Assembly (NCBI GenBank): GCA_964549795.1
Contig: CAZJVZ010000003.1
Location: 20,249-44,248 of the forward strand
Reading direction: 5' to 3'
DNA length: 24,000 nucleotides
Source: an uncultured Candidatus Bathyarchaeia archaeon
GTDB taxonomy: Archaea; Thermoproteota; Bathyarchaeia; 40CM-2-53-6
Shown in pieces: positions 23,032-24,000 of this stretch (the first letter of the stretch is position 1; each line of letters begins with the position of its first letter). The notes beneath the pieces are model-generated. The model worked only from the letters and a program-made list of their open reading frames with translations. It was not told the origin of the DNA and made no database searches. A program made the translations under genes and the position numbers.

Positions 23032-24000
23032 TCAGCGGGCTTCTTCTCGAAGCGTGACCAGACTCGTGTCTATGACTTCCCTTGCCTTCTCGATGCGTCT
23101 CTCGATGTCTTCGATGGCTCTATCGTATGCCTCTTTGGAGATCTTCCCAGAACGATACTGCGTCCTGAAGTGCTCCTCACCCAAGCGATTTGCATCGATC
23201 TCGCCTTCGGCCTTCTCCATTTTGAGGAATATCTCGTTGTATCTCGGATGGAATGCTTTGAGATCTTGTCTGAGCGGTTGAAGGGCCCTATCGAGTTCAT
23301 CCATTCGCAGCTCTATGGTCCTACGTCTGCGCCTGTACTCGTGTTTGTTGAGGGCACCACGAGTCAGATCCTGAGCCATTCTATCAAGCTCAAGTCTGAG
23401 GGCATTCCTCCCGTCGTAGAGCTCGACGAACTCCTTCAGCTGCTCCGATGGGACAGGAATTCCCGATGGTGCCGGTCTCCGCGTTCTGGCAACGACAATC
23501 GCGATCACTGCCACGAGTTCAATCAAGGCGGTCCAGACTAGCAGCATTGATCCTGACCAGAACGGCGCGTAGCTGTATTGGATGTTCAGCTCCAGATCGG
23601 CGTATGGGGTAGCGTCCGTGGTCTCGTATCGGAGTGTGCGGTCGTATAGTGAACTCGATGTTGCGAGTGGGATCGGGGACGTGCTCTTGATATTGAATCC
23701 GTTTGGAACAATGACGGTGGCCTCAAGCTTGTCAACCACCCAATACTTCACTTCCGGGAGAAGTGCAGAAGTGTACGTGTCGGTGCCCCACAATTCGCCT
23801 TGCTTCACGTACGTTCGTGGATCCACTTGGTACTTGAGTGTGAATGTGAATGTCCTGTTCGTGCTGATGCCGTCTGAGTATCTGGGGCTGAGCGAAACAC
23901 TGGGGCCTTGGCGCGGGAGGTCCCACAGAGGACCGAAAAGGTCGTAGGCCATTACGTCAGTGGAGTTCTGGGGAATTGTGAGCGAGATCGTCGAGACGGA
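23032..24000 (-). CDS. single-pass membrane protein, beta-rich ectodomain + TM + about 150-aa helical cytosolic tail; possible ribophorin I/OST1-like (N-terminus outside window)
   Basis: The frame stays open upstream of the ORF-track ATG (23952) to the window edge (...[22 protein letters not shown]...). The TM helix [21 protein letters not shown] is at 23485-23550. Collinear motifs resembling ribophorin I are PRY, [24 protein letters not shown] and IQYSY just before the TM. That the CDS is real: about 0.7. The ribophorin assignment: about 0.4. Confidence 0.55.
   Translation of the reverse strand, partial: [322 protein letters not shown]

Follow-up and report, generated by a model that had tools for sequence, protein, structure and literature searches.

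A ribophorin I/Ost1-like protein with a predicted cytosolic four-helix bundle in Bathyarchaeia

The archaeal DNA analysed here (24,000 nucleotides of contig CAZJVZ010000003.1, the whole of which is called the window) ends inside a minus-strand gene, the visible 3' part of which (23032..24000) encodes what is almost certainly a member of the ribophorin I/Ost1 family, an orthologue-like protein of Bathyarchaeia. This assignment is carried by a match to the Pfam family PF04597 (Ribophorin_I) above its curated cut-off, by a significant collinear alignment to the two lumenal domains and the transmembrane (TM) helix of human ribophorin I (RPN1), by a predicted fold whose closest structural matches are all RPN1 or Ost1 chains, and by a cytosolic tail that resembles a solved archaeal OST1 domain. 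Taken together with a mechanism in which the protein would serve as a ribosome-docking subunit of oligosaccharyltransferase (OST), family membership is in our view the best overall explanation of the data, with a probability of roughly 0.7. A ribophorin I homologue with a metazoan-like tail had been proposed in an original prediction, made from the window alone, that also drew conclusions on glycan genes and lineage, some of which have to be revised.

Family membership and overall architecture

The window holds the last 322 codons of the gene and its TGA stop (23032-23034, minus strand), with the frame open up to the window edge at 24000, past which the gene continues. These 322 residues comprise a beta-rich stretch, a hydrophobic segment followed by RTRR, and a highly charged, largely helical stretch of 151 residues that closes with LREEAR. 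The complete protein (P0001, 562 amino acids (aa) as called and 100% identical over the fragment region) was retrieved by a database search together with 84 more clusters, so that the window accounts for the C-terminal part of a protein of 562-568 aa. On a second contig with the same gene (L001), the public call for P0001 begins at TTG (leucine), and an in-frame ATG lies 18 nucleotides (nt) upstream of it (L001 532-549), adding MREKAI. Starting from this ATG, the N-terminus has a canonical signal-peptide n-region, with the signal peptide MREKAILCAAVLVVIFLVSALPSAAVAQ followed by SEY, and the product is 568 aa long, as it also is in the L039 orthologue and in L040. Judging from these reading frames, the true P0001 product is probably the 568-aa form.

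Searched by itself with hmmscan against Pfam and NCBIfam, the visible 322-aa fragment gave no PF04597 match even at E<=10, returning only weak coiled-coil matches (GvpG; CdvA, E 0.059; SMC, E 6e-4); significance is reached only when the full-length protein or a family profile is used. Full-length P0001 scored 39.3 bits against PF04597 (gathering cut-off 25; E 5.9e-10), so that the expected Pfam assignment, which failed for the fragment, held for the whole protein. Five relatives scored 33-59 bits and jointly cover model positions 3-435 of 437, one of them (P0068) being collinear with positions 19-432. DUF2207 (PF09972), the alternative family that had been named beforehand, was rejected as the better match, P0001 scoring 15.1 bits (cut-off 24.4; E 0.027) with a match confined to residues 222-301.

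At the profile level, a full-length family profile of 45 sequences (A1) found human RPN1 among the PDB sequences at E 6.2e-17, in two collinear stretches corresponding to RPN1 25-256 and 275-459. The second stretch takes in the TM helix, with profile positions 232-405 aligned there (hmmsearch, i-E 1.4e-9), and hhalign against human RPN1 275-607 gave a probability of 96.8% and an E-value of 2.6e-10 over 283 columns. The claim that the visible part of the protein is collinear with the C-terminal half of human RPN1 is thus borne out by both programs. Five short motif pairings had been offered in its support, of which four, including YDLFG with YRDEIG and IQYSY with VHYTF, were reproduced by both aligners; the fifth, LRYET with LHYTY, was recovered by hhalign only, HMMER pairing the archaeal LRYET strand with human VIVAYKK instead.

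Structurally, an AlphaFold2 model of P0001 built with A1 (mean predicted local distance difference test score, pLDDT, 86.8) comprises a signal-peptide helix, beta-sandwiches at residues 27-203 and 210-384, a TM helix at 391-413 and four helices of about 30 residues each. The two beta-sandwiches are those expected of an Ost1 ectodomain, and when the model was searched against the PDB with Foldseek the top eight matches were all RPN1/Ost1 chains, from human (8b6l_O at E 1.2e-27, 6s7o_E, 8pn9_E and 6s7t_E) and from yeast (6ezn_A, 7oci_A, 8agb_E and 6c26_1), with E-values down the list to 8.3e-19; the ninth was an unrelated protein at E 7e-7. The yeast Ost1 chains superposed with target-normalised TM-scores of 0.66-0.69 and a root-mean-square deviation (rmsd) of 4.9-5.6 A over about 440 columns.

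Within the window, the C-terminal two thirds of the second extracellular beta-sandwich are encoded at 23569..24000 (-), corresponding to P0001 241-384, a region that holds the motifs paired with RPN1. The single TM helix follows at 23482..23550 (-), P0001 391-413 with a hydrophobic core at 392-411, aligns to the TM helix of RPN1 by both hmmsearch and hhalign, and is succeeded by the RTRR noted above and by a tail of 151 residues, in agreement with the single TM segment and helical tail of about 150 residues that had been described from the fragment. N-X-S/T sequons number nine in the ectodomain of P0001 (two of them in the part visible in the window) and none in the tail, and the family means are 2.31 per 100 aa in the ectodomain versus 0.31 in the tail. 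The predicted topology is type I, with a cleavable N-terminal signal peptide and one TM helix after the second beta-sandwich, and this model is supported because RTRR obeys the positive-inside rule and the sequons are confined to the ectodomain.

The cytosolic four-helix tail

The tail is predicted to form a cytosolic four-helix bundle, encoded at 23038..23448 (-) with H1 at 23359-23448, H2 at 23251-23346, H3 at 23152-23247 and H4 at 23038-23136, which in the AlphaFold2 model of P0001 correspond to residues 425-454, 459-490, 492-523 and 529-561. Modelled alone, it reached a pLDDT of 91.1. Among the PDB sequences, profile A1 matched 8whn_A, annotated as a 'Ribophorin 1 superfamily protein', at E 1.5e-16 with the whole tail covered; this entry is a crystal structure of the OST1 cytoplasmic domain of the Lokiarchaeon MK-D1 (PMC11417166). 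A tail-only profile (A2) aligned to the MK-D1 tail by hhalign with a probability of 98% and an E-value of 2.4e-13 over 138 columns at 25% identity, and BLASTP of the MK-D1 tail against other family members gave many matches at E 1e-10 to 1e-17. In the model, the tail structurally matches this solved archaeal OST1 domain, with Foldseek TM-scores of 0.85 (query) and 0.89 (target) and an rmsd of 1.6 A, 8WHN being the sole match with E<=1e-3. Against human RPN1 (8b6l_O), the query TM-score was 0.65, with an rmsd of 3.5 A over 131 columns; CdvA filament chains also appeared among the matches of the tail, at TM-scores of about 0.4 and E-values of about 0.7.

The tail is also the best-conserved region of the family, mean pairwise identity being 52.9% there, 32-34% in the two ectodomains and 31.5% in the TM helix, and its conserved motifs include a basic KHEYRRRRR and ITLREEAR. 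At the level of sequence identity, these figures demonstrate strong purifying constraint on the tail.

Proposed role, rival explanations and gene neighbourhood

Functionally, we posit that the OST1-like protein is a type I membrane glycoprotein that would act as a non-catalytic partner of the AglB/STT3 oligosaccharyltransferase at the cytoplasmic membrane, its TM helix and ectodomain placed beside the catalytic subunit and the emerging polypeptide, and its cytosolic bundle docking the complex onto the large ribosomal subunit at the Sec translocon. Such docking would couple N-glycosylation to translocation, as RPN1 does in the mammalian STT3A complex. The cytoplasmic domain of MK-D1 OST1 is a four-helix bundle of human topology that pulls down ribosomes (PMC11417166), and the bundle of mammalian RPN1 contacts eL28 and rRNA H25 and H19/20 (PMC6761772). 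A link to glycans is supported by the gene neighbourhood, in which 25 of 38 loci have a hexapeptide-repeat (LbH) gene immediately upstream of the OST1-like gene, usually in the same orientation, and a glycosyltransferase family 4 (GT4) gene lies nearby in several loci as well as in the window. The docking mechanism is argued from these analogies, and we regard it as a somewhat better than even bet.

Several observations weigh against this reading. Pairwise BLASTP between the window's own tail and the MK-D1 tail detected nothing (E 33), and hhalign of A2 against human RPN1 458-607, the human tail sequence having been checked against 6s7o_E beforehand, gave only a non-significant 13-column GKxxKxxY match (E 0.019, probability 2.4%), which pairs with RLVAGKLKKDTYI of human RPN1 at the same position in both tails. 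The TM-score of 0.65 to the human tail is by itself weak evidence because four-helix bundles are a common fold. The proposed metazoan likeness of the tail is therefore upheld structurally and through the Asgard intermediate, and fails as direct sequence similarity to the human tail. The pull-down with the MK-D1 tail used human, not archaeal, ribosomes (PMC11417166). The GGWK motif of eukaryotic RPN1, already noted as unconserved in the original prediction, is absent from the window protein in the alignments. To our knowledge eL28, a mammalian contact, is a eukaryote-specific ribosomal protein, and any archaeal docking site must therefore differ in part. AglB/STT3 or OST3/6-like genes were sought nearby, and none turned up within 10 kb of the gene in three relatives (L037, L038 and L039) or in the window; this says little either way, because adjacency is not needed in eukaryotes or in MK-D1.

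The main rival to ribosome docking retains the ribophorin I homology and lets the bundle serve CC423 or another cytosolic partner instead of the ribosome, so that the protein might, for example, be a tether or scaffold for a Bathyarchaeia-specific assembly, perhaps with an AglB-independent ectodomain. CC423 is a 423-aa soluble helical protein encoded at 21685..22956 (-), 75 nt downstream of the OST1-like gene and on the same strand. A CC423 gene (417-423 aa) follows the OST1-like gene in 19 of 35 Bathyarchaeia loci, the most divergent (23-26% identity) included, on the same strand and across a gap of 50-110 nt. CC423 is thus a possible partner of the OST1-like protein, and a tail conserved above the level of the ectodomain is what would be expected if the bundle had a specific protein partner; the search for AglB within 10 kb of the three relatives, which found none, also fits this rival. 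However, in a second clade of some 12 loci the downstream position is taken by a DHDPS/Fae gene instead of CC423 while the tail stays the same, and the homologous MK-D1 tail binds ribosomes (PMC11417166). Moreover, CC423, which has more than 160 homologues, all of about 417-423 aa and with the conserved motifs RPYYILDMM, GFxRLGRPLRKL, ERGDYP and KPFTTF, could be placed in no known family when 34 members were searched against Pfam and a profile against PDB sequences, the only match being a weak one to the PAN3 C-terminal domain (E 0.009). On balance, we consider this alternative to docking rather unlikely.

A more speculative extension of ribosome docking, which we likewise regard as improbable, would make CC423 an undescribed cytosolic component that cooperates with the tail in an archaeal ribosome-translocon-OST assembly; the tail itself would be an ancient docking module, older than the TACK/Asgard split and no Asgard or eukaryotic invention. 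It is suggested because the tail is the most constrained part of Ost1 and because the order acetyltransferase-like gene, OST1-like gene, CC423 gene is locked in one large clade.

A fusion protein was observed alongside the family. In P0375, of 1000 aa (L041 8001-11003; GCA_053940065.1, JBMXMN010000019.1), an N-terminal prolyl isomerase of the FKBP type and an Ig-like domain precede an Ost1-like part made up of a complete ectodomain, a TM helix and the four-helix tail of the family, and hhalign aligns residues 455-998 to A1 at E 8.6e-36. Among the genes around it are those for an actin homologue, NMD3 and a divergent GT4 transferase, the last directly adjoining the fusion gene, and because of these neighbours the L041 genome is probably not from Bathyarchaeia. 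The fusion hints at a role in nascent-chain handling and, given that it has the same tail, fits a module that handles emerging nascent chains.

Evolutionarily, a further rival would have the gene acquired recently by horizontal transfer, or brought in as an assembly or binning contaminant, from an Asgard archaeon or a eukaryote. Reviews of Asgard eukaryotic signature proteins still treat prokaryotic Ost1 as Asgard (PMC10307638), as did the original prediction, which took a ribophorin I call to bear on the lineage of the contig; bacterial labels (Acidiferrales, Chloroflexota, [Eubacterium] cellulosolvens) on some homologous contigs could be read in the same direction. Yet OST1 and OST3/6 are reported from both TACK and Asgard archaea (PMC11417166, 2024 JBC), and GenBank entry KYH42048.1 is a Bathyarchaeota 'Ribophorin 1 superfamily protein'. 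Archaeal ribophorin I outside Asgard is accordingly already on record, the window protein is a further member in a lineage where the family had been noted before, and the supposed restriction to Asgard does not hold.

A scan of one genome per GTDB species recovered 35 loci, in Bathyarchaeia/Bathyarchaeota metagenome-assembled genomes (MAGs) or on a few bacterial-labelled contigs, with best-segment tblastn identities of 27-44% to the query protein; the scan relied on a single tail peptide pattern, to which the sequence of the window itself does not conform, so that it under-samples close relatives, and it is uninformative on other archaeal classes. Some of these loci lie on contigs of 0.5-2.4 Mb. 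Local gene order is conserved, with the OST1-like gene, CC423 and a convergent PINA-type ATPase kept in Bathyarchaeia loci and the flanking PINA proteins 66-72% identical to the window copy. Synteny with a 1.69-Mb metagenome contig (L039) extends over nearly all of the 24-kb window, the common genes being LbH, OST1-like, CC423, PINA, radical SAM, thioesterase, PrsW, UDP-sugar dehydrogenase, DUF354, GT4 and PGM. The window is assigned to Bathyarchaeia, which belong to Thermoproteati (TACK) and not to Asgard, from this synteny and from relatives with Ost1-like proteins 27-44% identical over the best tblastn segment, the closest relatives (60-80% identical) being mostly metagenome contigs. With the hosts of the relatives, the PINA identity and the synteny all pointing to Bathyarchaeia, an Asgard origin of the window was rejected, and the OST1-like gene is therefore no sign of one. 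The tail, moreover, is only about 25% identical to that of MK-D1. Recent acquisition or contamination is thus very unlikely.

Bacterial names were seen on several contigs with the same archaeal gene order, namely Candidatus Acidiferrales, 'bacterium', Chloroflexota, Candidatus Acidoferrum and [Eubacterium] cellulosolvens (WP_455279496.1 and WP_455286452.1; contigs L021, L031 and L035, proteins P0209, P0223 and P0092). Because these contigs hold the same archaeal neighbours, the labels probably reflect mis-binning or contamination in public assemblies.

Beyond genomes selected by species, a tail-profile search of 1.84 billion representative sequences returned 433 clusters at E<=1e-3, of which 325 reached E<=1e-10. 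The tail stood at the extreme C-terminus in all 150 of the matches listed, in proteins usually of 545-640 aa, and those matches that were checked carry PF04597.

The weakest rival, in which a generic DUF2207-like beta-sandwich membrane protein with a generic CdvA/SMC-like coiled coil is no true relative of Ost1, could appeal to the fragment's lack of a PF04597 match and its weak GvpG, CdvA and SMC matches, to the weak DUF2207 match of P0001 and to the CdvA chains among the Foldseek matches of the tail, but it is extremely improbable and is refuted as far as computation allows by PF04597 scoring above its curated cut-off and DUF2207 below, by the significant collinear alignment of two domains and TM helix to RPN1, by the Foldseek gap between RPN1/Ost1 (E<=8e-19) and everything else (E>=7e-7), and by a tail 1.6 A from 8WHN with a profile-level E-value of 2.4e-13.

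Turning to the other genes, the LbH gene upstream of the OST1-like gene (L001 2-337; L006 9137-9883; L039 7261-8028) would sit in the source contig just past window position 24000. It matches the NeuD/PglB/VioB sugar acetyltransferase family best, at a score under that family's cut-off, and its position is a conserved genomic link between Ost1 and sugar modification. Within the window, a sugar-1-phosphate nucleotidyltransferase (8489-9574, +), a phosphohexomutase (9510-10967, +) and a GT4 polyprenyl-phosphate HexNAc-1-P transferase of the AglH/Alg7/WecA family (10957-11961, +) account for precursor supply and initiation in the synthesis of lipid-linked glycans, at a distance of about 11 kb from the OST1-like gene. 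These genes had been described as starting dolichol-linked GlcNAc glycans, which stands in outline, except that a specific GlcNAc assignment of the nucleotidyltransferase is unsupported. In three divergent loci (L028, L031 and L032), GT4 lies 2.3-2.6 kb upstream of the OST1-like gene.

The PINA-type ATPase (19748..21688, +) is convergent with CC423 and serves here as a marker of synteny and lineage, outside any glycosylation function. Its listed GTG start falls inside the end of the radical-SAM gene (18172-19764, -), and translation probably begins at an ATG about 46 codons downstream, giving MPTPERL, because the NCBIfam alignment begins only at residue 50. Elsewhere in the window, a TPP riboswitch (RF00059, 60.3 bits, E 9e-10) at 891-1000 (-) lies directly upstream of a ThiT-type thiamine transporter gene (353-862, -), and a complete bacterial-type GrpE-DnaK-DnaJ chaperone operon occupies 2394-6103 (-) on this archaeal contig.

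Significance and comparison with known systems

The window protein is a clear Bathyarchaeia example of the complete RPN1-type architecture, with the four-helix bundle lost in yeast, and the 433 representative clusters with the tail mark the family as widespread and well conserved in this lineage. These results favour a ribosome-coupled accessory subunit of OST that either arose before the Asgard lineage or has moved between TACK and Asgard archaea; in either case, Ost1 taken alone is a poor guide to lineage. In practical terms the gain is modest, in that many 'hypothetical proteins' receive a corrected annotation. The family may also offer a second, deeply diverged set of tails for mapping conserved ribosome-contact residues, for which KHEYRRRR and QYRSGK are candidates. 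What novelty is left resides in CC423 as a conserved neighbour and in a tail that is conserved to an unusual degree.

Among known systems, OST1 of MK-D1 (WP_147663064.1, Candidatus Prometheoarchaeum syntrophicum) has the same architecture, with signal peptide, two beta-sandwiches, TM helix and a four-helix tail of about 150 aa. It differs in its length of 607 aa and its Asgard host, the window protein being shorter (562-568 aa) and hosted by Bathyarchaeia, and the neighbourhood with LbH upstream and CC423 downstream is specific to Bathyarchaeia. Also on record is KYH42048.1 (MAG B26-1, cluster P0273), which belongs to the same family (tail-profile E 2e-29; PF04597, 51.6 bits) and to a different, hydrothermal-type subclade, whereas the window protein is more distant and is labelled 'hypothetical protein' in databases.

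Mammalian RPN1 (6S7O_E, 8B6L_O) is collinear with the window protein over both lumenal domains and the TM helix (E 6e-17) and is matched by Foldseek at E 1.2e-27 over 596 columns, and the four-helix tails of the two proteins agree in length and position. The two proteins are only 12-15% identical, and RPN1 resides in the endoplasmic reticulum whereas the archaeal protein would reside in the cytoplasmic membrane. The mammalian partners eL28 and DC2/KCP2 are, as far as we know, absent from archaea. Yeast Ost1p (6EZN_A, 7OCI_A, 8AGB_E, 6C26_1), in turn, is the best rigid-body match for the archaeal ectodomain and TM helix but is without the cytosolic four-helix bundle (PMC6761772), which the archaeal protein has.

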